32,000 nt of DNA from Formosa sp. Hel1_33_131 (GTDB taxonomy: Bacteria; Bacteroidota; Bacteroidia; Flavobacteriales; Flavobacteriaceae): NCBI RefSeq assembly GCF_001735745.1, contig NZ_CP017260.1:1980001-2012000 (forward strand), written 5' to 3'. A model generated the notes under the pieces. It was not told the origin of the DNA and did not search any database. It worked only from the letters and a program-made list of their open reading frames with translations. How positions within the stretch are numbered: the first letter of the stretch is position 1; every line of letters begins with the position of its first letter. Shown here piece by piece: positions 1 to 25,153 of the stretch. A program made the translations under genes and the position numbers.

Positions 1-635
1 CAGTGTTCTTTGACTTCTTCAGCACTCCAATAGCTGTCAATCAATGGTACTTTGGTTACATACTTTGAAGCCACATCAACGCCTTCTTCCCATTTGGAAG
101 ATATGTACATATTTTTAATGGAACGCGTGTTTTCATCCATGAGCTCGTAACGGCAATTGGCTGTTTGTTGTCTCTTAACTCGGTTGATGGTTTTGAAATC
201 GTTTGACAAAATATACTCTGGGCATCCTAAATGCCAAAATTCTAAATCTGCAATTATTTCTTTAAAAAAACGCTTCATCTGGTTGCGCTTCCAAAATTCA
301 TGTATATCTGGATATTGGTGAATACATTTTTGTTGAATAATCCGTTTGTCGTCTTCGTGTGATTCTGAGGCGATTATAAAGCCCGAACCGTAATGGGCTT
401 TCCTGTTGGTTCGCAAACCAGAACGCAAGGAACCAGCACCTCTAATTTTTTTAAGAACTTTTTGAGGATAGTCATTGTTAGCACCCCAAGCTGCAACTTT
501 ACCGTCTTCGTCATCGGTGTGTAAAATAACCGTGGTTACTTGTGCATCTGTTTTTTTACTCGAAGCAAAAGAAACGACCGCTTTTACATTGCCACCTGTA
601 ACGGCTACATCATTGCCGTAAAATTGTGTGCTCAT
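1..635 (-). CDS. Phage protein, 5' part only (211 codons, continues past left edge); putative portal by position
   Basis: Hand translation of the minus strand from ATG 635-633 (MSTQFYGNDVAVTGGNVKAV...) stays open to position 3. It is missing from the ORF track because there is no stop in the window. Its start overlaps the upstream stop (TAATG), and it lies just after the terminase genes. Confidence 0.5.
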   Translation of the reverse strand, partial: MSTQFYGNDVAVTGGNVKAVVSFASSKKTDAQVTTVILHTDDEDGKVAAWGANNDYPQKVLKKIRGAGSLRSGLRTNRKAHYGSGFIIASESHEDDKRIIQQKCIHQYPDIHEFWKRNQMKRFFKEIIADLEFWHLGCPEYILSNDFKTINRVKRQQTANCRYELMDENTRSIKNMYISSKWEEGVDVASKYVTKVPLIDSYWSAEEVKEH

Positions 636-976
636 TAGTAGTGTGTTTTTTTTCCATTAATCGAGGTGATTAATCGGATATGAATTTTTTTAGTTTCTCC
701 GTTTTGAAGTTCTAAATTTCTGGTTCGGTTTTCGTAATGCCGTGGGTTTCGTTTCACTCCTGTTGGTGATTGCAATGCAACCAACATAGAAGCCATTGAA
801 GGTGTGGATTTTTTGGAGCGTAATTTTTTGACTTGATTATATTCTAAATGCTTGCCTCCTGTTTTTGAAAATTTTTGATAAGTTCTAAACGTCACATCAA
901 AAGGAATTGCGTTCCCTTCATGATCGACTCTGTCTATAATTGCGACGGCAGATTTAAAATCAAATCTATTTTTCAT
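635..976 (-). CDS. Hypothetical phage protein, 113 aa, basic
   Basis: ORF track. A conserved promoter cassette lies at 981-1015 immediately upstream, and the stop overlaps the next start. Confidence 0.6.
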   Translation of the reverse strand: MKNRFDFKSAVAIIDRVDHEGNAIPFDVTFRTYQKFSKTGGKHLEYNQVKKLRSKKSTPSMASMLVALQSPTGVKRNPRHYENRTRNLELQNGETKKIHIRLITSINGKKTHY

Positions 977-980
977 AATG

Positions 981-1015
981 CTAAATTAGGAGCATTGCAA
1001 TTTTTAAAATAGGAC
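981..1015 (-). promoter_or_regulatory. Late-promoter-like cassette GTCCTATTTTA-N16-TAATTTAG
   Basis: The minus strand reads GTCCTATTTTA (1015-1005), 16 nt, then TAATTTAG (988-981). The start codon is at 976. Confidence 0.55.
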
Positions 1016-1288
1016 ATAAAAATTTTGTGAGAATTTGAATGAGAACTTCATTATTTTAAATCAAAACATCTGTTTTTTTCTGAATTACATTAATAAATTG
1101 TTTATTCCGTGCCAGTTTTACTGTTAAAATCTCATATTTTTTTTATTAAATTATTGATTTTCAAATTTTTATGTACTTTTTTTACCCTCTCAAATCTCTT
1201 TTTTGACAGTTCCCAACGCCGCATCCTTAGATAAATGACAATTGCCTGTATCGAAAACTAGGGATATATGAATTTTAGGTTACGAAAA

Positions 1289-2806
1289 TCAAATAAATAG
1301 AGGAAGCGTCCAGTGTTCCTTGTCTTCCTTCAATAAATCTTTGTAGATGTCCCAGATAGGGATGTCGAATGCATCCGGTAGGTGAGTGGTGTGCTGTTGC
1401 TTCATGCTCTGGTTACGTTCGTCCTTCTTGACCTTCTGAATGCCATTCTTATCCTCAGCAGCTTCAGCGCGCTCGAGTCCAATGATAAGATCCGGGTTGT
1501 TTTGTTCGTTGATTGCGATGGATGGATAACGTGAACTGGTAGCCTTCAGCATCATGTTCATGAGTATATATTTCCCATTGTGAGGGGCCACAGGCTTACC
1601 TTTACTCTTATCATACACCGTCCACCCCTTCGATTCCAGTAGCCGCACGAGGACATCGCCATAGGTGTCGTTCGTACCCTTCTTGACTCGGGCGTTACCA
1701 TCGTGACCATAATAGAGGTGAAGGACCTTGTTAGGCAGCGGCGCATAGTATTCCACAAAGTTATTAACGAGATCCTCGAGGTCTCGTGTCTCACTAGACT
1801 GAGACGCCCACATGGATTTAAGTACTTTGTATTGATTAGGCAAAGATTGACTAATCACAGCAGAGATAAATACCCCCCAATCGATCGAAAGGATAAGAGG
1901 ACGCCCCTTATCAATGTCATTGTCCTGTTTACAATTGAAAGACTTCTCTGTATAATTAGCGGTAATTCCCTCCAGATAATCGTTATTATAATCGGTATAA
2001 TAATGACTCTTTTTAAGTTGAGGATAAAATCCATTAAGAATCTCCTTAGGCCGTATATTTAATATTTCAGCATTGTAATATAAATCCGATGGTGATTCGT
2101 CCTTCATCTCTTCAAACCATTCTTCCCGTAAATTAAACTTATTGATTAAAGCACTCGCTTTGATAAAGGCATATTTCTCAGGCTTCTTTTTAGCCACTTT
2201 CTCAATATCCGTAAACCAGCGCCCTTTCTTAGTTAAAGGAGTAGAAGAGGCATAAATCTCAGCACCGAGCAAAGAACAATTTTCAAAACGGGCTTCTTTA
2301 GCTCTGTTGGTAGTTTTTACATTCGTAAATAGTTTCTCTGGATCAAACAAAGAAGCTTCATCTCCTAAAATACCAAATGAATTCAAACCACGTCCACTAT
2401 TCGGACTATCGAGCGATACCAATTGAAAAACAGAACCATTCGAAAAATGTATAATGTTATCCCATTTGTCAGGCGCATAGATAGGCTCAGCAAATCCAAG
2501 TTTAGCACCTTTTTTCCCAACAACATAATCATAACCTTCATAAATCCCCAGAGCTGCCAAACCGTTTTTTGTTGATGGAAGTGTCCGGGACAAAATCTGT
2601 TGATACGTAGAACCAACCAAAGCAAACGAAGCACCAGGCATTTGCTTTACCATTTCCTTCATGAAAAATGCCAGAATAAACGATTTACCCGTGCCTCGAC
2701 CCCATTCAAGATATATCTTCGTTTTTCCCAAAACAGTAACCGCCAAGACAGCCGCCAACTGCGCCGCATTCAAAACAATATCTAAGTACTTGCTTACTTT
2801 ACTCAT
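1289..2806 (-). CDS. terL: Terminase large subunit
   Basis: Walker A GRGTGKSF and Walker B-like ILGDEA, about 505 aa. I chose the start at ATG 2806 (MSKVSKYL), which overlaps the upstream stop by 8 nt (ATGAGTAA). Confidence 0.85.
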   Translation of the reverse strand: MSKVSKYLDIVLNAAQLAAVLAVTVLGKTKIYLEWGRGTGKSFILAFFMKEMVKQMPGASFALVGSTYQQILSRTLPSTKNGLAALGIYEGYDYVVGKKGAKLGFAEPIYAPDKWDNIIHFSNGSVFQLVSLDSPNSGRGLNSFGILGDEASLFDPEKLFTNVKTTNRAKEARFENCSLLGAEIYASSTPLTKKGRWFTDIEKVAKKKPEKYAFIKASALINKFNLREEWFEEMKDESPSDLYYNAEILNIRPKEILNGFYPQLKKSHYYTDYNNDYLEGITANYTEKSFNCKQDNDIDKGRPLILSIDWGVFISAVISQSLPNQYKVLKSMWASQSSETRDLEDLVNNFVEYYAPLPNKVLHLYYGHDGNARVKKGTNDTYGDVLVRLLESKGWTVYDKSKGKPVAPHNGKYILMNMMLKATSSRYPSIAINEQNNPDLIIGLERAEAAEDKNGIQKVKKDERNQSMKQQHTTHLPDAFDIPIWDIYKDLLKEDKEHWTLPLFI

Positions 2807-3368
2807 CCTCTTCCACTTCTTGAAATTCAGCATCTACCGTCATGTCGTTGAAGTCTAAAACACCCGTTGTCAAATGGCTTATAATCGCATCCGTCACCTC
2901 TTTAGGAATAGACATCTTAACAGGCTTATTGTCTAGTTTTTCAGGGTTGTAATTAATGGCATTTTCATTGTCAATATCTGAGTATTTACCCAACAAAGTC
3001 AAAGCCGTTCCTATGGCTTTCAGGTCCTTTGCCTTAATAGCCATCAATAAATACTTATGCGAATATTCATACAAGATTGACAAAGTGCCATCTCGATCCG
3101 CTTTCATCACATTACCAAACAACCGCTCTGCATCCCGAAGATCCCGATAGGCTTGCGCGCGACTGATTTCGTATTTTTCCATTAAAACGTTGGTCGATTG
3201 CTCTCTGGAGTGGAAATTTTGACGCAATGCAAATGCCGCCAACCAACGGTCTTTTATTTCTGTTTGGTTGGCGGTCAGTGGGTATTTTGTAGAATCCTTG
3301 TAATACGCAAAAAGCTTGTCAAAAGTAGAATCGCCTGTTTTTATTGTTGGTAGTTTTGATATTGCCAT
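2799..3368 (-). CDS. Putative terminase small subunit / DNA-binding packaging protein
   Basis: 189 aa directly upstream of and overlapping terL. It has an HTH-like segment (ISRAQAYRDLRDAERLF) and an acidic tail. The call rests on position only. Confidence 0.45.
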   Translation of the reverse strand: MAISKLPTIKTGDSTFDKLFAYYKDSTKYPLTANQTEIKDRWLAAFALRQNFHSREQSTNVLMEKYEISRAQAYRDLRDAERLFGNVMKADRDGTLSILYEYSHKYLLMAIKAKDLKAIGTALTLLGKYSDIDNENAINYNPEKLDNKPVKMSIPKEVTDAIISHLTTGVLDFNDMTVDAEFQEVEEDE

Positions 3369-3372
3369 AATA

Positions 3373-3407
3373 CAAAACTGGCAATTGTCAACTTTTTAGA
3401 ATAGGAC
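3373..3407 (-). promoter_or_regulatory. Late-promoter-like cassette GTCCTATTCTA-N16-CAGTTTTG with palindrome-like spacer
   Basis: Minus strand has GTCCTATTCTA (3407-3397) and the box CAGTTTTG (3380-3373). The spacer contains TGGCAATTGTCAA. ATG is at 3368. Confidence 0.55.
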
Positions 3408-3435
3408 AAAAAAAAACTACCTTTAGAAGTAGTTT
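3408..3435 (-). terminator. Intrinsic terminator after the ParB-like gene
   Basis: Stem AAACTAC/GTAGTTT (3414-3420 / 3429-3435) is followed on the minus strand by a U9 run (3416-3408). It overlaps the stop codon at 3434-3436. Confidence 0.65.
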
Positions 3436-3823
3436 AATTTTCAATCATAACTAAAAAATTTAGTATAATATCTCCAAAAACTTCATCTAAAATATCAGTA
3501 TCCCAAAAACCAACCGAAACGTTCGAAACAATATTATATTCCTTAAACTCCTGTTCCGAAAGTGTGCGGTTTGGAAGTCGCACATCAATAAGCTCCTCGC
3601 CCCGTCCTAAGTCCATCAGCACCTTAACACGTTGGTGACCGGCTATGATAGTCAGATCCGTATTAACTACCGGGATTTCAGCCAAATTGTAACGTTTCAA
3701 ACTTTTTTTAAGTTTTTCCAGACGTTCTGGAGTAATTTTTCGAGGATTGTAATTGTAAGGAACCAAGTCCTTAACCTTTCGTTGTTCCGTGTGCCATTCT
3801 AAAGGCGCTAATGTTTCACTCAT
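3434..3823 (-). CDS. ParB-like nuclease domain protein
   Basis: N-terminal ParB/sulfiredoxin-type motifs (NPRKITPERLEKLKKSL, IIAGHQRVKVL). ATGA overlap with the upstream gene. Confidence 0.75.
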   Translation of the reverse strand: MSETLAPLEWHTEQRKVKDLVPYNYNPRKITPERLEKLKKSLKRYNLAEIPVVNTDLTIIAGHQRVKVLMDLGRGEELIDVRLPNRTLSEQEFKEYNIVSNVSVGFWDTDILDEVFGDIILNFLVMIEN

Positions 3824-4536
3824 TTCTCATTTATTAAATTAGTTAATTGTTGCGCTTCATACTCATGCTGGAGCAACGTGCGCTCCGCCTTTTCAAAAGC
3901 AATTTTTAATTTTGTAGAATCCGATTTGGACAATTTTTGTCCAAACTGTTTTTTAAGGACTTCAACCTTCTTTTTATGCTTAGAAATTGTCGCTTTTTTA
4001 TTCCCTCGAGTTTGAATCAACTGAGCTGGCGTCAAATCCTCAAAACTCCGAGGCTTGATATTCAAAACAACCTTGTGTTTCTTGTAATAATCCAATACTT
4101 TTTGAGACGTTTCAATCGCATCAAACAGATCTTCAATCATAATACACAACTTCAAAGCCGCCCCTTCTTCGTCCGGATGGAGCGCAGTAAGCTGCAAATG
4201 CAAAGAACAGGCACGTTTATAATTAGTGCTTTGTTCAATCAACATCGGATGCAATCCTATTGGCATTTCATTAATCCTATAAAATCCTCCAGAACTATGT
4301 TTGGTCACCACAGGCGTTGGCGTCTGAATCTTGGTTATAGGCTCTTGATCTTTAACACTAGGATCTTCAGCCTCCCGAAACTTCCCAAGCTCATACGCCA
4401 ACTTCTCAGCATTGGCAAGGCTTTCTTTTCGCAAAAACAACCGAACCAAATTGGCACTATGCCCTTTTATGGACGCATACAATAAAACACCTTCGTTGTA
4501 TTGACATCCGCCATCAAACCAATTATTAATTTTCAT
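3820..4536 (-). CDS. Hypothetical phage protein, 238 aa
   Basis: ORF track. It has its own promoter cassette upstream and is translationally coupled to the ParB-like gene. Confidence 0.6.
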   Translation of the reverse strand: MKINNWFDGGCQYNEGVLLYASIKGHSANLVRLFLRKESLANAEKLAYELGKFREAEDPSVKDQEPITKIQTPTPVVTKHSSGGFYRINEMPIGLHPMLIEQSTNYKRACSLHLQLTALHPDEEGAALKLCIMIEDLFDAIETSQKVLDYYKKHKVVLNIKPRSFEDLTPAQLIQTRGNKKATISKHKKKVEVLKKQFGQKLSKSDSTKLKIAFEKAERTLLQHEYEAQQLTNLINEK

Positions 4537-4540
4537 AGCG

Positions 4541-4575
4541 TAAAATTGACAATTGTCAACTTTTTAGAATAGGAC
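4541..4575 (-). promoter_or_regulatory. Late-promoter-like cassette GTCCTATTCTA-N16-CAATTTTA containing the perfect palindrome TTGACAATTGTCAA
   Basis: Minus strand has GTCCTATTCTA (4575-4565) and the box at 4548-4541. The palindrome is at 4546-4559. ATG is at 4536. Confidence 0.55.
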
Positions 4576-4577
4576 AT

Positions 4578-4605
4578 AAAAAAAACCACTGTTTAGAGTG
4601 GTTTT
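4578..4605 (-). terminator. Intrinsic terminator after the secreted-protein gene
   Basis: Stem AAAACCACT/AGTGGTTTT followed by a U8 run on the minus strand. Confidence 0.65.
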
Positions 4606-5081: not shown

Positions 5082-5117
5082 AGAAATGAATTTTAAGATT
5101 AATAATTTATTGAGTAC

Positions 5118-5152
5118 CAAAATTGACAATTTCCAAAATTTTAAAATAGGAC
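5118..5152 (-). promoter_or_regulatory. Late-promoter-like cassette GTCCTATTTTA-N16-CAATTTTG
   Basis: Minus strand has the motif at 5152-5142 and the box at 5125-5118. The spacer holds TTGACAATTTCCAA (12/14 match to the palindrome). Confidence 0.55.
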
Positions 5153-5181
5153 AAAAAAAAGCCACTCCCTAAAAGAGTGAC
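5153..5181 (-). terminator. Intrinsic terminator after the 188-aa structural gene
   Basis: Minus-strand RNA GUCACUC-UUUUAGG-GAGUGGC (one G-U pair) followed by U8. Confidence 0.6.
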
Positions 5182-8565: not shown

Positions 8566-8589
8566 TTATAACATGCTTTTTGCACGTTA

Positions 8590-8624
8590 CAAACATAGCT
8601 TCACCCTACTTTTTAAAATAGGAC
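8590..8624 (-). promoter_or_regulatory. Late-promoter-like cassette GTCCTATTTTA-N16-TATGTTTG (perfect -7 box)
   Basis: Minus strand has the motif at 8624-8614 and TATGTTTG at 8597-8590. ATG is at 8565. Confidence 0.6.
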
Positions 8625-8642
8625 ACAAAAATAAGAGGGACT

Positions 8643-9116: not shown

Positions 9117-9190
9117 TTCAATTTAATTTTAGGACAAAAAAAAGTTTACCGAAAAATGTCCGACCCGTTTTCCTTTGTACATATCTGTTT

Positions 9191-9995: not shown

Positions 9996-10030
9996 CAAAC
10001 ATACTTCGCTCCAAAAAAATAAAATAGGAC
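9996..10030 (-). promoter_or_regulatory. Late-promoter-like cassette GTCCTATTTTA-N16-TATGTTTG (perfect -7 box)
   Basis: Minus strand has the motif at 10030-10020 and TATGTTTG at 10003-9996. ATG is at 9971. Confidence 0.6.
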
Positions 10031-10063
10031 AGTTTTTTGAGTAGGGCTCATTTTCAAAGCAAA

Positions 10064-10477: not shown

Positions 10478-10502
10478 AAAAAAACCGCCCGAGGGCGGTT
10501 TT
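10478..10502 (-). terminator. Intrinsic terminator ending the early operon (also usable on the plus strand)
   Basis: GC stem ACCGCC/GGCGGT with loop CGAG, followed by U7 on the minus strand. Confidence 0.75.
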
Positions 10503-10524: not shown

Positions 10525-10590
10525 TTAGCGATCGATAAAAGCTGTATTATCCCGACACATAGCTCCGTTAATACGGACTTTTGTTGACAT
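10525..10590 (-). CDS. Mini-ORF inside 71-bp element copy 1: MSTKVRINGAMCRDNTAFIDR (21 aa)
   Basis: Hand translation. It is conserved with the mini-ORFs in copies 2 and 3. Coding status is unproven. Confidence 0.3.
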   Translation of the reverse strand: MSTKVRINGAMCRDNTAFIDR

Positions 10591-10601
10591 ATACGGTAGT
10601 T
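10531..10601 (-). repeat. 71-bp conserved element, copy 1
   Basis: 65/71 identical to copy 3 by hand alignment. On the minus strand it begins at the stop codon of the upstream gene. Confidence 0.8.
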
Positions 10602-10839
10602 AAGCACAAGCTCTATTGAGTGCTTCGATTGTCCATTTTATTGCTGTATTAACATCCCCGTGTTTGCCATTATCTCCCATCCCTTGACAGTATGGTAATA
10701 ATTTATGGTCGTGTCTGTGATAATTTCCTCCTACTATTCCATTGTCAAACACTACTTTTTTCCATAACCATTTTCGAGTTAAGAGCCAGTGCTTAACACG
10801 TGGTATAGTTAATTGGGGTTTTTCTGCGTTATTCATCAT
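10600..10839 (-). CDS. Hypothetical phage protein, 79 aa
   Basis: ORF track. Confidence 0.5.
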   Translation of the reverse strand: MMNNAEKPQLTIPRVKHWLLTRKWLWKKVVFDNGIVGGNYHRHDHKLLPYCQGMGDNGKHGDVNTAIKWTIEALNRACA

Positions 10840-10915
10840 TTGTTATATTTATTAAATTTCTACTAAATCTGTAGGTTGTCGGTATCTAATCCCCAACTAA
10901 CCATACCACCATCCG

Positions 10916-11404
10916 TTAACTACAAGCACTACCTTCTTCTACCAACCAGAGATTAGGAGACATAAAAGGCTCTAAATCATAAGGTCGTTTACCATCGTGC
11001 AAGGCATATTTTATTCCGCTAATATGTTCCAATTTTACTACGGTAAATACAGAGCCTTGAACCGTATCTACTTTATCGCCAACATATATTTTTTTATTAT
11101 CTCTAGTTTTTACACCTGTATATTCTTTTTGTTTCATTTCGTTTCTAATTAAGCTTAGTACTACTATCTTGTTTGCTTCGATATAAGCAAGTGCTTCTTT
11201 GCCATCTATCCTAATTTTGTTTGGTTGTTCTTTATATCTTTCGTGATTAAACTGCACATACGCCACTTTAGTTTCTCCGTGTCCACAACAAGCGTTCATA
11301 ACATTTTTTAAAGTGCCAATACACCCATCGTGACCTTCTGGTGTTCGGTGCTTTTTACAATGCAAACAAAATTCTTTTCCTATGCCATCTAGGTAATTAC
11401 CCAT
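10916..11404 (-). CDS. Cys/His-rich (putative zinc-binding) phage protein, 162 aa
   Basis: Cys/His cluster CLHCKKH...GHDGC...ACCGHG. I chose the start at ATG 11404 (MGNYLDG) over the TTG at 11425. Confidence 0.55.
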   Translation of the reverse strand: MGNYLDGIGKEFCLHCKKHRTPEGHDGCIGTLKNVMNACCGHGETKVAYVQFNHERYKEQPNKIRIDGKEALAYIEANKIVVLSLIRNEMKQKEYTGVKTRDNKKIYVGDKVDTVQGSVFTVVKLEHISGIKYALHDGKRPYDLEPFMSPNLWLVEEGSACS

Positions 11405-11523
11405 AATTTTAAAAGTTGCTAGCAAGGGCTATAATTCATCCCTTGCTAATGTTAGTATTTAATTTGATAGTTCGTTTTGTATAGGCACGAAATCATAGCC
11501 CAGAGCCGTTATAAAACATTACC

Positions 11524-11844
11524 TTATTTGGTAGTGTCATATACGGTTTCTGTTTCACCATTCGGTTTTCTTTTCCTTATTTTTAAGGGGTCAAAGTGTT
11601 TCATGTTTGTAATCCCAACTGGGATGTCGTACCAATCATTTGGAAAACCTAAACAACAGTATTCTAATTTCTCGCCTTCTTCAACCAACGGTAACGGTTT
11701 TATAACATCGGATATAGGCAAATTATTTACTAATCTTTCGTACATTTTATCAAATACCTCATACTTTTTATCGCTGTTAGTTATCTCCATTCCTTTAATG
11801 AATAACCATTCTAAAGCACTTTTTTCTTGTTTTGTAAATTCCAT
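11524..11844 (-). CDS. Hypothetical phage protein, 106 aa (full-length parent of the duplicated 5' fragment)
   Basis: ATG start at MEFTKQEKSALEWLF. Its 5' 46 codons plus the leader lie in the 189-bp repeat. Confidence 0.55.
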   Translation of the reverse strand: MEFTKQEKSALEWLFIKGMEITNSDKKYEVFDKMYERLVNNLPISDVIKPLPLVEEGEKLEYCCLGFPNDWYDIPVGITNMKHFDPLKIRKRKPNGETETVYDTTK

Positions 11845-11897
11845 TTGTTTAGTCTTTTTAAATCCGTAAATAATCAACCCATATCTGCGCACCGTTA
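11709..11897. repeat. 189-bp perfect direct repeat, copy 1
   Basis: Base-for-base identical to 13883-14071 by direct reading. The ORF-track shadow ORFs are also identical. Confidence 0.9.
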
Positions 11898-11901
11898 TAA
11901 A

Positions 11902-12123
11902 CTATGCTTTGGTTATTGCTTTTTTGCGAGGTTTAGGTTGTAAATATTTAATGCATTTTATAAGTTCTTCAATTTCTGCAATGTTCTGCTTTAAATCTTC
12001 AGCGTATTGCTTCTTTTCTATTGTATCTAATTCAGGGTTGTTTATGCCACAAACATTACTGCCTGCACAATCTTGGTTGTGGTTTAATTGGCGCATTAAA
12101 TATTTTATGATGGTCTGTTTCAT
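11902..12123 (-). CDS. Hypothetical phage protein, 73 aa
   Basis: ORF track. I preferred the ATG at 12123 (MKQTIIKYL) over the GTG at 12153. Confidence 0.5.
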   Translation of the reverse strand: MKQTIIKYLMRQLNHNQDCAGSNVCGINNPELDTIEKKQYAEDLKQNIAEIEELIKCIKYLQPKPRKKAITKA

Positions 12124-12236
12124 TTTATTAAATTTCGTGCTTATTTTCCGCACATTTCATATACAATTCCGTTACTTCGCTAAGTCGGGATACTTTGCGG
12201 AGCGGGTGATTCTTATAGAGTAATCAAAATATTTAA

Positions 12237-12500
12237 CTAAAAAAACATTCTTTTCATTTCGGTGTTGTCACTTTCCGATGGAATGAGATAAGGTCTTAAG
12301 TCTAAAGCCCCACATATCTCTAAGTACACACCTAGCGGCATTGGTGTTTTGATTTTGAAATAACCTATCAAAGTAGGCTCGCTTACTTCTAGGATCACCA
12401 CGAGCTTTCTGATGGTTACTTTTTTTTCCTTCATTCTTTTTTTTAAGTAGGACATGATTAGCTGCTGCCCTACTTTTGATGCTTGCTTGTAGTTTTTCAT
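12237..12500 (-). CDS. Putative HTH DNA-binding protein, 87 aa
   Basis: The segment VTIRKLVVILEVSEPTLIGYF resembles an XRE-type helix-turn-helix. The gene abuts the upstream gene (12500/12501). Confidence 0.5.
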   Translation of the reverse strand: MKNYKQASKVGQQLIMSYLKKRMKEKKVTIRKLVVILEVSEPTLIGYFKIKTPMPLGVYLEICGALDLRPYLIPSESDNTEMKRMFF

Positions 12501-12773
12501 TTATGCTTTTTTAGTTTTTGTTATCCAAGTATTCAGAGGTTGATTAATTGATTTCAACTCTTCATCGCTCCAATCTGTATGTTCGCCATCAACAATCTTA
12601 CATAGCTCATACTCATGTCCCTCTTTAAAATCAAAACTATTTACATCTAGTTTTTTAAAAGCATTGTAAGCGTCTTTTAAGTCGTCAAATTCTGTTTTGA
12701 TTTTTGCGTTACCATAATTTAAGTCTAGTTCTTGTGAATTTTCGTTTCTCCACACTAATTTGTAATTTTTCAT
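12501..12773 (-). CDS. Hypothetical phage protein, 90 aa
   Basis: ORF track. Confidence 0.5.
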   Translation of the reverse strand: MKNYKLVWRNENSQELDLNYGNAKIKTEFDDLKDAYNAFKKLDVNSFDFKEGHEYELCKIVDGEHTDWSDEELKSINQPLNTWITKTKKA

Positions 12774-12968
12774 AATTTTTGGGTTTTTGGGTTATTTTTT
12801 TTAATAATTATTACATTTAATTTAAGGTAGTTGCTTCCTTGCAACACTTCGAAGATACGTGTTAACTTAAATATATACAAGTTTTATTTGAAAAAACTTT
12901 AGTATTTTAATGCTTTTTATGGAATTATCAATAAATAAGATGTTTTATTGAATATTATTTAAAGGTTT

Positions 12969-13052
12969 TTACTCTTTTTTTGTCCATCTCGTTCCTATGA
13001 AGATGATTAGAGCTATCATTTCTATTGTAAAAAGTGTGATCAATGTTTTCAT
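12969..13052 (-). CDS. 27-aa hydrophobic peptide MKTLITLFTIEMIALIIFIGTRWTKKE
   Basis: Hand translation. It has an ATG start 4 nt after the stop of the mini-ORF in element copy 2, and one predicted TM helix. Confidence 0.3.
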   Translation of the reverse strand: MKTLITLFTIEMIALIIFIGTRWTKKE

Positions 13053-13055
13053 GTT

Positions 13056-13163
13056 TTAAAATAGGTGTTTTGCTTTTTTGTTTATATTCCAAGCCTTGAA
13101 ACACTCGATAAAAGTTGTGTTATCCCGTGATATATACCCGTTAAGACACCTTTTAGTACGCAT
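13056..13163 (-). CDS. Mini-ORF inside 71-bp element copy 2: MRTKRCLNGYISRDNTTFIECFKAWNINKKAKHLF (35 aa)
   Basis: Hand translation. It is homologous to the mini-ORFs of copies 1 and 3. Confidence 0.3.
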   Translation of the reverse strand: MRTKRCLNGYISRDNTTFIECFKAWNINKKAKHLF

Positions 13164-13174
13164 ATACGGTAGTT
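13104..13174 (-). repeat. 71-bp conserved element, copy 2 (most diverged)
   Basis: It shares the TCGATAAAAGTTGTGTTATCCC and GCATATACGGTAGTT ends with copy 3. About three quarters of positions are identical by eye. Confidence 0.7.
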
Positions 13175-13184
13175 AGCCACAAAT

Positions 13185-13388
13185 TCACTCAATTTCGGTG
13201 GTTTGTTTGGCTTTTATACACTTGTAACCTTCTCGTTTAAATTTTAGCCAAGAACATCTTTCACCATTCCATAGCTTCATCCACTTTTCAATTGAAGCGG
13301 TTCTTGTTCTTTCAAATGTGTATGGTAATATAAATGTTCCGTTCATGGAAGCTATTACCCATCCTTTATCTATTTCTTTTGATTTCAT
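13185..13388 (-). CDS. Hypothetical phage protein, 67 aa
   Basis: ORF track. Confidence 0.5.
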   Translation of the reverse strand: MKSKEIDKGWVIASMNGTFILPYTFERTRTASIEKWMKLWNGERCSWLKFKREGYKCIKAKQTTEIE

Positions 13389-13477
13389 ATTTCGTTTTTT
13401 TTAATCCGTTCATCAGTTGCTAACATTATCTATAAATGCATTGAAACGCATTATAGATTTAGCGTTGTAGCTAATGC

Positions 13478-13771
13478 CTAAAGAGCTTTAAGTCTATCAA
13501 TCTCGGCAGCTATCAACGCACCAGCTTTTTGAAGTTCACGAATACGATCTTCAGGTGTCGGTTTCCACCACTTTCTTTCAAATGGCCAAATATGTGGTGT
13601 GCTGTCATAACCTTCTGATGTGGTTCTCCTGTAAAGTTCAGCAGAAGCATAAGCTGCTGCTGCGTGTGCTAAATCACCAGTATTGTGCTGTGCATCGTGT
13701 TCGGGTGTCCAGCCTTCTTTTTCAATTTGTCGCTGCCTTTCTTCGGCAATTAATTCAATTCCAGTTTTCAT
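13478..13771 (-). CDS. Hypothetical phage protein, 97 aa (alternative ATG at 13840 would add a hydrophobic N-terminus)
   Basis: ORF track. The conserved-looking core is IAEERQRQIEKEGWTPEHDAQHNTGDLAHAAAAY. Confidence 0.55.
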   Translation of the reverse strand: MKTGIELIAEERQRQIEKEGWTPEHDAQHNTGDLAHAAAAYASAELYRRTTSEGYDSTPHIWPFERKWWKPTPEDRIRELQKAGALIAAEIDRLKAL

Positions 13772-13871
13772 AATTAAATTTTCGTTTAAGGCACTGGCTA
13801 CAACAATGTATAAAAACAAGCCGCTGAAAAGCCAGTGCATAATTTCAGCGTTTGTCGTGGCGGCCAGATTT

Positions 13872-14018
13872 TTATACTTGGCCGGATATAGGCAAATTAT
13901 TTACTAATCTTTCGTACATTTTATCAAATACCTCATACTTTTTATCGCTGTTAGTTATCTCCATTCCTTTAATGAATAACCATTCTAAAGCACTTTTTTC
14001 TTGTTTTGTAAATTCCAT
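13872..14018 (-). pseudogene. Truncated 5' duplicate of gene 11524..11844 (46 identical codons, then GQV-stop)
   Basis: It lies within copy 2 of the 189-bp repeat. The reading frame diverges exactly at the repeat boundary (13883). Confidence 0.7.
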
Positions 14019-14071
14019 TTGTTTAGTCTTTTTAAATCCGTAAATAATCAACCCATATCTGCGCACCGTTA
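13883..14071. repeat. 189-bp perfect direct repeat, copy 2
   Basis: Identical to 11709-11897, offset by 2174 bp. Confidence 0.9.
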
Positions 14072-14080
14072 ACTGCAAGG

Positions 14081-14521
14081 CTACGATAAAGCTCTAATCA
14101 ACATTATTGCTCGCAAATTCGCCTCATTACTTCCTTCTGCCGTTCCATTTTCATCTCTACCATTCCAAAGATTTTCAGGGAACACATAAACAGAATATTT
14201 TTCTACTTTTTCCAATAGCAATACACCAAGTTCGGCAACTGTAAAAGCAGAGGAGTTTTCTACATTATAGCCATCTTCAAGTTGCAGTTCGCTTTCATCT
14301 GTAATTAAATAAGGTTCGGGAGCATCTTCACCGTGTTCCCAATAAAACTTTGATTCTTGTTTTACACCTAATTCTTTCAATTCTTTCGCAAATTCGGCAT
14401 TACATACTTGCTCTTCTAATTTCATTTTGTTGTTATTTGACACCTTTTTTACTTCATCAATTAAAGTGGCTTTGTATTCTCCTGCTAATTCTCTGTTGCT
14501 AAATGTTAATTTAGTTTTCAT
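14081..14521 (-). CDS. Hypothetical acidic phage protein, 146 aa (the frame stays open upstream into element copy 3; alternative start ATG 14641)
   Basis: ORF track. I preferred the MKTKLTFSNREL start. The 14081..14716 extension reads through the 71-bp element. Confidence 0.55.
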   Translation of the reverse strand: MKTKLTFSNRELAGEYKATLIDEVKKVSNNNKMKLEEQVCNAEFAKELKELGVKQESKFYWEHGEDAPEPYLITDESELQLEDGYNVENSSAFTVAELGVLLLEKVEKYSVYVFPENLWNGRDENGTAEGSNEANLRAIMLIRALS

Positions 14522-14581
14522 AGTATATGTTTTAAGGTTATACCAGTAATATACGACTGATTTAAAGTAATTAAAAGCTTT

Positions 14582-14652
14582 GTCGATAAAAGTTGTGTTA
14601 TCCCCACACATAGATCCGTTAATACGGACTTTTGTTGGCATATACGGTAGTT
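14582..14652 (-). repeat. 71-bp conserved element, copy 3
   Basis: Its mini-ORF MPTKVRINGSMCGDNTTFIDKAFNYFKS... is in frame with the downstream gene. Confidence 0.8.
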
Positions 14653-14679
14653 GTAAACAAGCCGCCAATCTATACGCAA

Positions 14680-14711
14680 GTGTTGTGAAAAGGGCGGCCA
14701 GTTCACAACAC
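14680..14711. repeat. Perfect 10-bp-stem hairpin GTGTTGTGAA-N12-TTCACAACAC with a GGCC-containing loop
   Basis: Read directly from the sequence. No U-run follows on either strand. Confidence 0.7.
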
Positions 14712-15132
14712 TGCATATAAAAAATAGCTTGGCCATTACTTTTTAATCAACTTTCGGCCAGTACTTTATTTTCTTGGCCAACGCTTTTAATTTCGTCAAC
14801 TAATAAACCCATCTTTCTAATCCATTGGCCATCTTCTAAAATTTCAAGTGGGCAAAATTCAGATAGTTCGACCATATTAACAAATTTGCCATTATACAAC
14901 CTAGAGTGAAAGTCACAATGTAATATTTCCCCACTTTCGGCCACCCAAATTTTTTGCATATCGTGGCCTAAATCTGCAAGTATCAGTTCTTTAAAAGTTG
15001 TCTTGGCCAACCATTGGTCAAATTCCTTTTGGTTGTTAAATTTCTCGGCCACATACTTCGGTTTTAATTCAATTTTATTCATCATTTTTGGTTTTATGGC
15101 CAACGCTTCAAAAAAATAAAGTGAGGATGGCC
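14696..15132. repeat. Cluster of 11 GGCC sites (consensus YTYGGCCA) over one small gene and its flanks
   Basis: Hand count of GGCC starts: 14696, 14731, 14756, 14776, 14827, 14939, 14965, 15005, 15047, 15098, 15129. Confidence 0.8.
14747..15085 (-). CDS. Hypothetical phage protein, 112 aa, carrying 7 GGCC sites
   Basis: ORF track. I preferred the ATG-ATG start at 15085 over the TTG at 15103. Confidence 0.55.
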   Translation of the reverse strand: MMNKIELKPKYVAEKFNNQKEFDQWLAKTTFKELILADLGHDMQKIWVAESGEILHCDFHSRLYNGKFVNMVELSEFCPLEILEDGQWIRKMGLLVDEIKSVGQENKVLAES

Positions 15133-15187
15133 TGTTTATATTTATTAATTTCCGTGCTTTAACACGCTACTTTTTATATGCTTTTCG

Positions 15188-15535
15188 TTATAAAAACTTA
15201 AAACTCCCAAAATTAGCAACCACCGTATAAGGGTCTCCAGTAATCGTTGGGTCCGTAATTAGTTCTGTTTTATATCTGTGCAATAAAAAAGGCACTCCAT
15301 CCACAGAATAAAACCGTTTTTTTACAGAGGCATAGTCAACGCATTTACAGCGTTCTTTGATAAAATCACTAAATTCCAAAGGAGTCTTAAACTCAAATCC
15401 CTTACGTTTCAATCCAGCAATAGCATAATAATCTAGGGACCTGTTTTGTTTATATCTGAAACCTTGAATTAATTCATCTTGTATATTGCTAATGAATTCA
15501 AGCTGTTCGTTGAGTTCTTGATCTGTATATTTCAT
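15188..15535 (-). CDS. Hypothetical phage protein, 115 aa
   Basis: I moved the start to MKYTDQELNEQ (ATG 15535), just after the upstream stop at 15537. Confidence 0.55.
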   Translation of the reverse strand: MKYTDQELNEQLEFISNIQDELIQGFRYKQNRSLDYYAIAGLKRKGFEFKTPLEFSDFIKERCKCVDYASVKKRFYSVDGVPFLLHRYKTELITDPTITGDPYTVVANFGSFKFL

Positions 15536-20131: not shown

Positions 20132-20718
20132 GCTATAATTTTATACTGAATTGATAAATAGAGTAATTCCGTTTTAGTCGTCACCCCAAGGGCCCTAAAC
20201 AGTCGAGACTTATGAAAGTCTAGTGTTTTGGTAGTCACCCCAAGCGCGGCCGCAATGGCTTTGTCTGGGAGGTTATCGGCTATAAAATCAACGATCACCA
20301 ATTGGCGAGGTGTGAAAACATGATTTTTGATGTTTATATTTTTTGAATCCCATAACAAGCTAGGACAGTTCCGGGAGTCTCTAAAGTTTTCGGATGGGGC
20401 TAGTTTCCCGTTTTTGATGTCTGGAGTTGCGTCGAGGCTTCCGTACATATAATAAGTGTACAATTCTACTTGTGTACGTAACTTATCAGACACTTCGGAC
20501 AAAAAAGCAATGGCCGTATGGTCTTTTAAATACGCGTTTTTTAGAAGTGTATAATAGTACAAAGGCAAATCACTGAAGTAGTGATTATTCCCATTTTGCA
20601 TCCAAAGGACTTGCTTTGTTTTTCGGACGCCAATAAATTCAAGGTTTGAATCATTAGGCATGAGCCCAGCAATTTGTGGGTAAGCTTTAAAATTTGTAAT
20701 TTTGACATTGTTAATCAT
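20128..20718 (-). CDS. LuxR/GerE-type HTH regulator with an uncharacterised N-terminal domain
   Basis: The C-terminus (TPRQLVIVDFIADNLPDKAIAAALGVTTKTLDFHKSRLFRALGV) matches the LuxR_C HTH pattern. Confidence 0.75.
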   Translation of the reverse strand: MINNVKITNFKAYPQIAGLMPNDSNLEFIGVRKTKQVLWMQNGNNHYFSDLPLYYYTLLKNAYLKDHTAIAFLSEVSDKLRTQVELYTYYMYGSLDATPDIKNGKLAPSENFRDSRNCPSLLWDSKNINIKNHVFTPRQLVIVDFIADNLPDKAIAAALGVTTKTLDFHKSRLFRALGVTTKTELLYLSIQYKIIA

Positions 20719-20744
20719 AGGTTTAAGAATTTGATTAATAAAAA

Positions 20745-21014
20745 TTAAACATCCGCAGTTCCAGCTGCGGATTTTTTATGCAATAAGTTTTCTCTTTTTT
20801 GTTGTAGTGCTAATCGTTTATCAACGACTCTATATATAGCTGCCTCAATTACATCATGGCTTTCACCATTCATCACATTTGTAATATGACTGGTTGAGTA
20901 GGACTGACCGCCCTTGTTAAACTCTTTAGAAGTATTCAATTCTTCTTGAATCAAAGGAGCGCATCGATACCCTATGATGTTTTTAATCGATTCTTTGTCT
21001 GTGGCTGTTATCAT
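20745..21014 (-). CDS. Cro-position early protein, 89 aa (paralog of 24294..24569)
   Basis: It is the first gene of the leftward operon, divergent from the CI-like repressor. It is ~60% identical to the paralog by hand alignment. Confidence 0.65.
   Translation of the reverse strand: MITATDKESIKNIIGYRCAPLIQEELNTSKEFNKGGQSYSTSHITNVMNGESHDVIEAAIYRVVDKRLALQQKRENLLHKKSAAGTADV
20751..20772 (-). terminator. Hairpin ATCCGCAG/CTGCGGAT overlapping the 3' end of the cro-position gene, followed by a U-rich tract
   Basis: 8-bp GC-rich stem. The minus-strand downstream sequence is GUUUAAUUUUUAUU. It lies 27 nt before the LuxR-type start. Confidence 0.5.
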
Positions 21015-21054
21015 GGAAAAACCCTATTTGTTTGTTTCGTTTTTTTCTTTTACT

Positions 21055-21082
21055 TTACTGACGTATTACTGACACAAATATA
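21055..21082 (-). promoter_or_regulatory. Leftward early promoter -7 box TATATTTG (21082-21075) with adjacent TTACTG direct repeats (operator-like)
   Basis: TTACTG occurs at 21055-21060 and 21066-21071 (11-bp period). The same layout is conserved at 24610-24637. Confidence 0.55.
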
Positions 21083-21110
21083 GCATATAAATATACTAGT
21101 ATCCAAATTT

Positions 21111-21485
21111 ATGGTAAATAATTTTACTAATATTAAAAAAAGAATACGTCAAATAGCTAAAGACAAGAACATTAGCTATGAGAAATTATATAAAATAATT
21201 CAAATGACAGACGGAAGTTTTAAAGGTTCTGCCATAGATAGGCCCATAAATTCTGACGCAATAGTAAAATTATATACTCATTTTCCAGACATTAATTTAG
21301 AATGGTTAATCACTGGCCAAGTGAAAACCCCCACAAATGCGGTTCATGAGTCGTCCAATACGCCCGATTTTAAAGCGAAATACTTAGATGTCGTAGAAAA
21401 TTACATGATACTTAATAATGAAAATTCCGAGTTAAGACAGGAACTGAAAACCTTAAAAAAACAATTATTAATTAAAAATGAATAA
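21111..21485 (+). CDS. CI-type phage repressor (HTH N-domain, coiled-coil C-terminus)
   Basis: The domain end INLEWLITGQ is typical of the phage CI repressor HTH family. There is a leucine-zipper-like tail, and the gene is divergent from the early operon. Confidence 0.7.
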   Translation: MVNNFTNIKKRIRQIAKDKNISYEKLYKIIQMTDGSFKGSAIDRPINSDAIVKLYTHFPDINLEWLITGQVKTPTNAVHESSNTPDFKAKYLDVVENYMILNNENSELRQELKTLKKQLLIKNE

Positions 21486-24171: not shown

Positions 24172-24270
24172 TTATCGTTTTATGAATCTCAAAAACCTTA
24201 ACGCCTGAGTCCTAAATTCATTGATTTGCGGATAAGGACTAAAAGTTGTAATTTTGTAATAGTTAACCAT
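24172..24270 (-). pseudogene. 32-codon remnant of a LuxR-type regulator gene (MVNYYKITTFSPYPQI...)
   Basis: The N-terminal 16 residues align with MINNVKITNFKAYPQI of 20128..20718. The upstream DNA (CATAGATTTAAT...) also parallels 20716-20745. Confidence 0.55.
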
Positions 24271-24293
24271 AGATTTAATTTTTTGCGAATAAT

Positions 24294-24569
24294 TTAAAGT
24301 TTCGAGATTGCAGTTACATCCGCGTTTTTTTTATTGATTAGGAATCTTCTTTTTTTTTGAATTTTCAAACACTTTTTGACAACTCTGTAAATAGCCGCTT
24401 CAATGATCTTATGTTTTTCACCGTTCATTACATTAGTGATATGTCCTTTAGAGTAGGGCGCACCAACTTTATTAAATTCGTTACTATCAATTAATTCCTT
24501 TTGAATGAGAGATGCATATGGATGTCCGATAACGCTCTTTATTGATTCTCTGTCCGACTTATTAATCAT
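24294..24569 (-). CDS. Cro-position early protein, 91 aa (paralog of 20745..21014)
   Basis: It shares the core HITNVMNGE.H..IEAAIYRVV and is divergent from a second CI-type gene. Confidence 0.65.
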   Translation of the reverse strand: MINKSDRESIKSVIGHPYASLIQKELIDSNEFNKVGAPYSKGHITNVMNGEKHKIIEAAIYRVVKKCLKIQKKRRFLINKKNADVTAISKL

Positions 24570-24609
24570 AGAAAAATTCTATTTTTTTATTTCATTTTTT
24601 TCTGTTACT

Positions 24610-24637
24610 TTACTGATGTATTACTGTTGCAAATATA
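24610..24637 (-). promoter_or_regulatory. Second copy of the leftward promoter (-7 box TATATTTG at 24637-24630) with TTACTG repeats
   Basis: TTACTG occurs at 24610-24615 and 24621-24626, with the same spacing as in module 1. Confidence 0.5.
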
Positions 24638-24679
24638 ATATAAATATCTAAAAAATAAAAATAATTATCTAATTATTTA

Positions 24680-25033
24680 ATGACGCATAAAGAAAAAATA
24701 TTGCAATATCTTAATTATAAGAATATAAAGCCCACTTGGTTTTGTAGGACTTGTAAATTTTCTAATGGCTTTTTAGACTCTGGAAAGTCTTTTGGGACGG
24801 ACAAATTAGCTATTATTTTAGATAATTATAAAGATTTAAACGTGAAATGGTTGCTTTTTGATGAAGGCGATATGCTTTTATCGGACACAAATATTGTAAA
24901 TGAACCTCATTCAAATTACGGAAAAGAGGTTAAAGAAATGCTTTACGACCAAATTGAAAAAAACTTAATATTAAAGACCAAAAATAAATCTTTGCAAGAA
25001 AGCATCGAGAACTTAAAAAAAACGGATCAATAA
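24680..25033 (+). CDS. Second CI-type repressor-like protein, 117 aa
   Basis: LNVKWLLFDEGDM matches the CI HTH-domain end motif. It has a coiled-coil tail and is much less similar to 21111..21485 than the cro-side paralogs are to each other. Confidence 0.6.
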   Translation: MTHKEKILQYLNYKNIKPTWFCRTCKFSNGFLDSGKSFGTDKLAIILDNYKDLNVKWLLFDEGDMLLSDTNIVNEPHSNYGKEVKEMLYDQIEKNLILKTKNKSLQESIENLKKTDQ

Positions 25034-25081: not shown

Positions 25082-25153
25082 CAAATCCACACGATTTGAT
25101 ATTTTCCTTCAAAATATAAAACCAGTTAACTATCTTTGAGTTTTAATATACAG

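Follow-up and report, generated by a model that had tools for sequence, protein, structure and literature searches.

A junction sequence repeated among the early genes of a Formosa prophage: a likely recombination linker for accessory-gene cassettes

The stretch of DNA analysed here, hereafter the window, comprises 32,000 nucleotides (nt) of the chromosome of Formosa sp. Hel1_33_131 (contig NZ_CP017260.1, positions 1,980,001 to 2,012,000) and contains, in the early region of a prophage, three copies of a short direct repeat that has not previously been described as a sequence family. We consider it likely (probability about 0.7) that this element is a recombination linker for accessory-gene cassettes. 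It would be a non-coding junction at the 3' end of accessory cassettes, each of them with its own copy, among the early genes of a group of temperate Formosa phages, and would serve as a crossover point for homologous recombination and gene conversion. Recombination between copies, either within one genome or between the prophage and a co-infecting relative, would delete, insert, replace or homogenise cassettes, with the crossovers using the identical blocks that border the element, AACTACCGTATATG at its left end and GGGATAAYACAACTTTTA at its right end. The copies themselves, their maintenance across dissimilar phage contigs and the variants that break in or at the element are directly visible. 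The exchange is probably driven by homology and carried out by a phage recombinase that tolerates short homology, and the conserved blocks may have an additional cis-acting function that holds them invariant.

Three copies at the 3' ends of accessory genes

A repeat search of the window identified a family of three direct repeats of 80 nt per copy, all on the minus strand, at 10532-10611 (copy 1), 13105-13184 (copy 2) and 14583-14662 (copy 3). Three copies in a common orientation had been proposed in an initial annotation of this stretch, with which the search agrees. Copies 1 and 3 have one type of core (type A) and copy 2 another (type B). Over 80 nt, copies 1 and 3 share 71 identical positions, copies 1 and 2 share 59 and copies 2 and 3 share 60; over the 71-nt coordinates used originally, the reported identity of 65/71 between copies 1 and 3 is reproduced and copy 2 is, as stated, more diverged (53/71 versus copy 1 and 56/71 versus copy 3). 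The 14-mer AACTACCGTATATG has exactly three occurrences in the window, and the 22-mer GGGATAAYACARCTTTTATCGA at the right end also occurs three times, against a chance expectation of 0.01. A profile of the element matches only the three copies within the window (E ~5e-22). The left boundary lies approximately 10 nt beyond the edge reported earlier and has the form (G/A)(C/T)TTGTnnnTAAC, an arm that forms the final codons (“xCx-stop”) of unrelated upstream genes. Fifteen sequence variants can be aligned without gaps and fall into the two core types, which are both represented within the window (A, B, A) and within one IMG/VR contig. The invariant blocks in this alignment are AACTACCGTATATG, TTAACGG, GGGATAA and CTTTTA, with variable patches of 1-4 nt between them.

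The element belongs to the early genes of a prophage that is integrated in the 2.74-Mb chromosome of Formosa sp. Hel1_33_131, an assignment that follows from protein look-ups and from the flanking host chromosomal genes (GalE, CcoG, CcoP and CcoNO, encoded at 25.1-32 kb of the window). Exact protein look-ups identified the primase as AOR28945.1 and the 146-amino-acid (aa) gene downstream of copy 3 as FORMB_19110 (AOR28941.1). On the minus strand the primase is followed by small hypothetical genes, among which the three copies are located, and then by a strong intrinsic terminator (AAAACCGCCCTCGGGCGGTTTTTTT, 10481-10502, minus strand) that lies 3' of copy 1 and separates the early and accessory genes from the co-directional late genes, which encode an S49 protease, the capsid and the terminase. 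Every gene of the copy-bearing region is on the minus strand, and the copies share this orientation. Copy 1 overlaps the stop codon of FORMB_19020 (10600-10839) and is situated some 30 nt upstream of the terminator; its context is also found in metagenome contig L013 (L-numbers, such as L001 or L043, denote contigs or stretches from outside the window, mostly metagenome assemblies). The copy-2 14-mer starts 10 nt after the stop codon of FORMB_19080 (13185-13388), and the earlier placement of these two copies at or shortly after a stop codon was therefore accurate. Between copies 3 and 2 lies cassette 1 (13185-14582, minus strand), which consists of FORMB_19110, a truncated 68-aa paralogue, a 120-aa gene and FORMB_19080 (67 aa), and between copies 2 and 1 lies cassette 2 (10612-13104, minus strand).

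Natural variants break within or beside the element

The position of copy 2 is a locus of at least five natural variants. Contigs encoding the exact 67-aa protein upstream of this copy were surveyed, and five arrangements were found in the natural population. In the first (L045, L047, L048 and L051) the locus is as in the window. In the second (L044) the B core is kept and the right flank departs 12 nt past the element. In the third (L052) the copy-2 flanks enclose a core that is 100% identical to that of copy 3, a pattern which, judged from the sequences, indicates a gene conversion tract. The fourth arrangement (L043) joins the copy-2 left flank to a copy-1-type core followed by the terminator and late genes: positions 1-707 of this contig correspond to window 13811-13105 and positions 630-3627 to window 10609-7612, so that the 2.5-kb cassette 2 is absent there. 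The fifth, seen in two independent samples (L049 and L050), combines the copy-2 left flank and a type A core with a third right flank.

Breaks at the element are also observed elsewhere in the region. Contig L019 is 100% identical to window 10915-11167 up to the left edge of the element, where the switch falls after the stop codon plus C; from this point L019 continues with a complete type B element and the 3' end of an integrase gene, and the window differs. Two further contigs, L017 (100%) and L007 (99.8%), match the window as far as 14715, immediately ahead of the copy-3 hairpin described below, and beyond it carry other genes and then one element that faces a lysis module. All four combinations of core type and right flank are represented (L001a, L014, L019 and L010), as are all four combinations of core type and alignment column 69. 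The three window copies, of types A and B, have a private right end in common (TTTTATCGA, as against TTTTACA in 10/10 outside variants), and since this end is shared across the two types it implies concerted evolution. Crossovers fall in at least three intervals (block 1, the right block and just past the right block), a scatter that argues for homologous recombination or gene conversion rather than for an enzyme acting at a single site. The initial annotation could not choose between a family of tiny peptides, a reiterated RNA signal and a small mobile or recombination-linker sequence; it is the last of these, in its linker form, that is borne out by population variants with breakpoints inside the element.

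A number of points weigh against interpretation as a linker. A recombinase gene was not identified in the window, and the identical blocks, at 14-22 nt, are short for recombination. The invariance of the blocks has no explanation among our findings; it may reflect binding of a protein, an RNA signal at the 3' end or the homogenising effect of recombination itself. Whether a given event was a gain or a loss cannot be inferred from the variants, most of which are metagenome assemblies. Chimeric assembly is an unlikely source of them, since no more than about 15 nt are shared at the left junction and L049 and L050 recur in independent samples, although variants seen in a single contig remain open to chimerism. 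Finally, seven of the approximately 12 outside contexts adjoin tyrosine integrase genes, as might be expected of a site-specific system.

A site-specific recombination system as an improbable alternative

In such a system the element would be the site of a tyrosine integrase or other recombinase, and the early region would resemble an integron or shufflon in which direct copies allow circular cassettes to be excised and captured. The copies are indeed direct repeats located directly after stop codons, and the element is found tail-to-tail with a tyrosine integrase gene in L001, L002, L004, L009, L011 and L019, with an integrase after the element in L006. These integrase neighbours belong to three different types, and several breakpoints fall between AAC and TACCG or between TTAAC and GG. 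However, crossovers occur in three or more intervals and the L052 core corresponds to a conversion tract, not to a single exchange. The element does not follow the genes for integrase homologues at 81-87% identity (L024 and L032), whose 3' ends are accompanied instead by a C-terminus remnant of another integrase. In L036, which carries an integrated homologue (54% identity), host DNA lies 5' of the integrase gene whereas the element is found 3' of it in other contigs, and hence the phage attachment site (attP) is not on the element side. No integrase was found among the scanned open reading frames (ORFs) of the window, the element has neither dyad symmetry nor attC-like inverted ends, and a search of 185,579 representative genomes (one per species) gave 0 matches and thus no candidate bacterial attachment site. 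We therefore regard recombination at the element by such an enzyme as improbable.

The more specific proposal that the copies represent attP was rejected on the same grounds, together with the position of the copies inside the prophage and the lack of a tRNA gene in the window. Likeness to dif/Xer sites, ops sequences, DnaA boxes or CRISPR repeats was assessed by eye and is limited to partial matches of 6-8 nt.

The integrase junctions show a further peculiarity. Remnants of the C-terminus of one integrase type are present directly downstream of a different, intact integrase gene (L001 8304-8402, L024 5503-5541 and L032 2675-2713), with ...IIEQSPDF beside int1 and ELPEDYSELLKY beside int2. Comparison of these sequences indicates that the integrase has been replaced repeatedly at this junction. 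In L011, which derives from a related phage, the gene at 2816-3853, between those for the integrase and a repressor-like protein, encodes 345 aa, including an HsdR N-terminal domain of the type I restriction kind, and may be a defence gene of the lysogeny module.

Distribution in other phages

The initial annotation had listed a lack of conservation outside this phage among the results that would count against its idea; the element is present in other, otherwise dissimilar phage contigs. It was found in 17 metagenome stretches and in one 53.7-kb IMG/VR contig, Ga0209199_1000524, which contains two full copies and one half copy. The element is 89-100% identical among contigs that share almost nothing else with the window at the level of either DNA or protein. 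Its left flanks are of 12 or more different kinds and its right flanks of six or more, the latter including the 3' end of a convergent tyrosine integrase gene, the three flanks seen in the window and the stop codon of the last gene in a lysis/tail module, which is convergent and encodes 83 aa. In all 25 or more instances its orientation is that of the upstream genes. No match to either core type was detected among 50,697 GenBank phages, even in a distant mode of searching. Within IMG/VR a relaxed pattern of the right half gave only two chance matches, and a search based on the primase retrieved no related viral contigs.

Sequences with a more distant resemblance to the element are found at other junctions. 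A solo left arm (GCTTGTAGTTAAC) is located at the end of FORMB_19030 (10915-10927, minus strand); a degenerate fourth copy at this position was considered and rejected, as the sequence that follows shows no significant resemblance to the element's right half (p 0.17-0.52). In a possible degenerate relative at 12140-12206 (minus strand) the left arm contains a hairpin and ends in GTAAC; the sequence after it, GGAATTGTATATG, is similar to the alternative right half seen in a partial copy, L002b. Similarity is marginal here, as it is for look-alikes at 15130-15190 in the window and for a remnant in L008 (AAC followed by TACCGTATA). These sequences offer a hint that most junctions of the region may carry related linkers.

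A second, weaker junction family was also noted, with the form ...TAAC followed by G(G/A)AA..TATAT..GYG..AAGCACGRAAATTWAATAAA-ATG. Its members (window 12140-12206 and 15130-15190, L002 11636-11700 and L032 ~2715-2760) fill whole intergenic gaps, and in L002b the sequence is fused to the left half of the element.

Mosaicism below the level of the gene is also seen without involvement of the element. Four 35-kb contigs (L053-L056) from an otherwise unrelated phage with a DUF6371-type primase share with the window only a 375-nt segment (92%, window 14067-14441), which corresponds to the C-terminal 114 codons of FORMB_19110.

Coding potential and mobility

Each copy contains an ATG, and the three peptides that the initial annotation derived from these starts are all correct, as is the observation that the copy-3 ORF is in frame with the gene at 14081-14521. 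If the ATG opened a translated mini-ORF, the element could encode a family of small peptides or act as a spacer whose translation carries ribosomes over from the upstream stop codon to the next gene. The ATG is invariant in 15/15 variants and two frames stay open; moreover the copy-2 ORF stops 3 nt before the next ATG, and the copy-3 ORF continues into its neighbour as described. The pattern of substitution is not that of a coding sequence, however. Variable columns are distributed 7/5/7 over the three codon positions and the ratio of nonsynonymous to synonymous polymorphism (pN/pS) is 0.87 in the ATG frame, while the best of the six frames gives 0.58, far from typical coding values. The predicted products vary in length (21, 35, 46 and 77 aa), their tails and stops differ according to context, and in most contexts the frame runs antisense into a convergent gene. 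The copy-2 mini-ORF is unannotated and absent from protein collections. Translation from the ATG is therefore very unlikely to be what the element is for. A superseded model of the gene downstream of copy 3, UPI00084E1289 (186 aa, window 14081-14641), began at the copy-3 ATG, and NCBI now gives 146 aa (AOR28941.1). The ATG of the element can thus mislead gene callers and should not be used as a gene start.

It is also extremely doubtful that the element is a miniature selfish mobile element with its own means of insertion, one version of which would be a 37-nt unit, TACCG...TTAAC, that duplicates an AAC target. Identical cores do occur in unrelated flanks, and the short forms (window 12171, window 10915 and L032) seem to lack exactly the segment between two (T)AAC motifs; the 12-nt remnant in L008 could be interpreted similarly. 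Nevertheless the similarity of the short forms to the element is marginal and in the case of 10915 non-significant. The ends (AACTACCG... and ...CTTTTA) are not inverted repeats and there is no consistent target duplication. Copies occur in a single orientation and without exception at the 3' ends of genes, no transposase accompanies them, and a unit of 37-66 nt is smaller than known miniature inverted-repeat transposable elements.

RNA structure, promoters and terminators

A constant orientation with respect to the upstream genes and a position at operon ends would also be expected of an RNA signal that acts in cis where early transcripts end, for instance in stabilisation, processing or antitermination, in which case the role at junctions would be a by-product. 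Copy 1, about 30 nt before the early/late terminator, is consistent with this possibility. In six contexts in which no upstream gene abuts the element it is preceded by a hairpin of 9-10 bp, GTTGTnnnn...nnnnACAAC, which has no T-run, shows compensatory changes (GTTGTAAAA/TTTTACAAC, GTTGTGCTT/AAGCACAAC and GTTGTGTTC/GAATACAAC) and pairs with the first bases of the element. A similar 13-bp hairpin, GCAGTGTTGTGAA...TTCACAACACTTGC, is found just upstream of copy 3 (14676-14714, minus strand). In addition, a hand-drawn helix between blocks 1 and 4 is 90% paired, compared with 24-57% in shifted register.

Other results speak against an RNA signal. The preceding hairpin is missing in gene-end contexts including copies 1 and 2, and for this reason cannot account for the conserved core. 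The hand-drawn two-helix model was derived from the same sequences, and its covariation is no better than that of shuffles. RNAalifold retains four invariant pairs (-2.5 kcal/mol) with no covariation, and the sense-strand fold z-scores of the copies (-0.16, +0.93 and -0.66) are no better than shuffled sequence. Searches against Rfam 15 gave no gathering-level matches in the window and none on the copies at E values up to 10. A CCGT-ATTA-ACGG hairpin had been noted in copies 1 and 3; it is present in these two copies only and is lost in type B. A 5-bp hairpin followed by a T-run, which would constitute a weak terminator, is confined to the antisense strand of type A. Positive evidence for the reiterated RNA signal of the initial annotation is lacking, and we consider this explanation unlikely.

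The preceding hairpin has a more detailed consensus, GTTGTnnnn-(CGTTTTAATG loop)-nnnnACAAC within TATAC...GTATA, in which the distal four pairs show compensatory changes. It is found in L017 (1521-1549), L004, L009, L010 and L018, and once on its own, without the element, at L017 1290-1335.

The copies do not appear to be promoters. A scan for sigma-70-type promoters found no sense-strand site in the copies, and neither the Bacteroidota -33/-7 consensus (TTG-N17-23-TAnnTTTG) nor a lone TAnnTTTG was found in or beside any copy; a promoter function was rejected on this basis. The suggested likeness of one segment to a late-promoter sequence amounts to a weak resemblance, which is not seen in copy 2. 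The late-gene sequence itself is a minus-strand motif, TGTCCTATTTTAAAA, repeated approximately 40 nt upstream of at least six late-gene starts (969-1024, 3361-3416, 4529-4584, 5106-5161, 8578-8633, 9120-9144 and 10010-10031), and a TAnnTTTG box comes after it at 10003. From its position and sequence, the motif is probably the late promoter to which the initial annotation referred, and probably a phage-specific upstream element that replaces the host -33 box.

Relation to known systems

The closest parallels are the promoter-early stem-loop (PeSL) cassettes of T4-type phages, which are conserved intergenic repeats in hyperplastic regions that start from upstream stop codons and whose recombination leads to indels and replacements (Arbiol et al. 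2010, PMC2839356; Comeau et al. 2014, PMC4122927). Similarly, the element described here is a short conserved intergenic repeat that begins at the upstream stop codon in a plastic region of accessory genes. Its three copies are distributed among the small hypothetical genes downstream of the primase, with a stop codon at copy 1 and another 10 nt ahead of copy 2. Recombination between copies would, as for PeSLs, explain indels and replacements between relatives (in this case L043, L044, L049/L050, L052, L019 and L017). By definition, PeSLs contain a strong sigma-70-type early promoter and a stem-loop terminator, and are present in about 50 copies per genome (PMC2839356, PMC4122927). In contrast, our element has no promoter of the sigma-70 or Bacteroidota type, no stem-loop common to both core types and only three full copies, and its phage is a temperate Flavobacteriia phage. 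Since the promoter and stem-loop that define PeSLs are both absent, we liken the element to a PeSL without classing it as one; it may work in the manner of a PeSL or of a classical linker.

Lambdoid phages likewise form mosaic genomes, with crossovers at short homologies between unrelated genes, through linkers or relaxed recombination. The modular theory put forward by Susskind and Botstein in 1978 reportedly envisaged short conserved boundary or linker stretches at the module junctions of these phages. The present case differs from these linkers in that the linker belongs to a single, defined family of sequences, has two allelic cores and recurs within one genome, and in that the products of exchange are seen directly in natural populations. 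Rad52-like phage recombinases catalyse relaxed homologous recombination (PMC3945230) and are a plausible engine of linker exchange, although no such gene was seen in the window.

The arrangement is also reminiscent of integron attC sites, which form direct repeats in one orientation directly after the stop codons of promoter-less cassettes. The attC sites are imperfect palindromes in which structure rather than sequence is conserved, and IntI recombines them at one position. The element, in contrast, is conserved in sequence, non-palindromic and without an IntI, and its crossovers are scattered. Identity as an attC site was rejected, as the ends of the element do not pair and the scanned window ORFs include no integrase. 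A resemblance to the nut sites of lambda and the put sites of HK022 is apparent in the reiteration of the sequence in early operons, its similar size and its combination of a conserved block with a variable hairpin. The nut and put sites are located just downstream of promoters and have defined, conserved stem-loops, whereas the element is found at operon ends and has no structure common to its two types.

Other features of the prophage

A perfect duplication of 189 nt is present in the accessory region (window 11709-11897 = 13883-14071). It places the first 61 codons of the 122-aa gene at 11524-11892 into cassette 1, where it gives rise to the truncated 68-aa ORF at 13872-14078. The same duplication is found in metagenome contigs L044-L046 and is therefore not an assembly error of the isolate genome.

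A divergent pair of regulators is present in two diverged copies (20672-21485 and 24224-25033) that share a 62-nt repeat. Each pair consists of an 89/91-aa gene opposite a 124/117-aa repressor-like gene, with an AAA_14/DUF4143 ATPase encoded between the two pairs, and host genes begin at 25136. The duplicated region may represent a second, decayed element next to the prophage end.

Implications

Phage genomes are mosaic, but the points at which they exchange are seldom caught in the act. Here, one short sequence family marks the boundaries of cassettes, and natural populations display the outcomes of cassette gain or loss, of replacement and of conversion. The host of the prophage is a cultivated and ecologically important flavobacterium of the North Sea. 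The combination of an isolate lysogen with time-series metagenomes offers a tractable system in which to follow linker-driven gene turnover in the phages of marine Bacteroidota.

There is a small chance that a dedicated phage recombinase or nuclease binds or cleaves the invariant blocks and thereby targets exchange to cassette boundaries. If so, Flavobacteriia phages would possess a purpose-built, integron-like means of capturing and shuffling accessory genes, possibly with defence or anti-defence genes as cargo, and core types A and B would be compatibility alleles. As a recombination linker that relies on homology, the element would indicate that shuffling of the PeSL kind is not limited to T4-type lytic phages and does not require a promoter-terminator unit.

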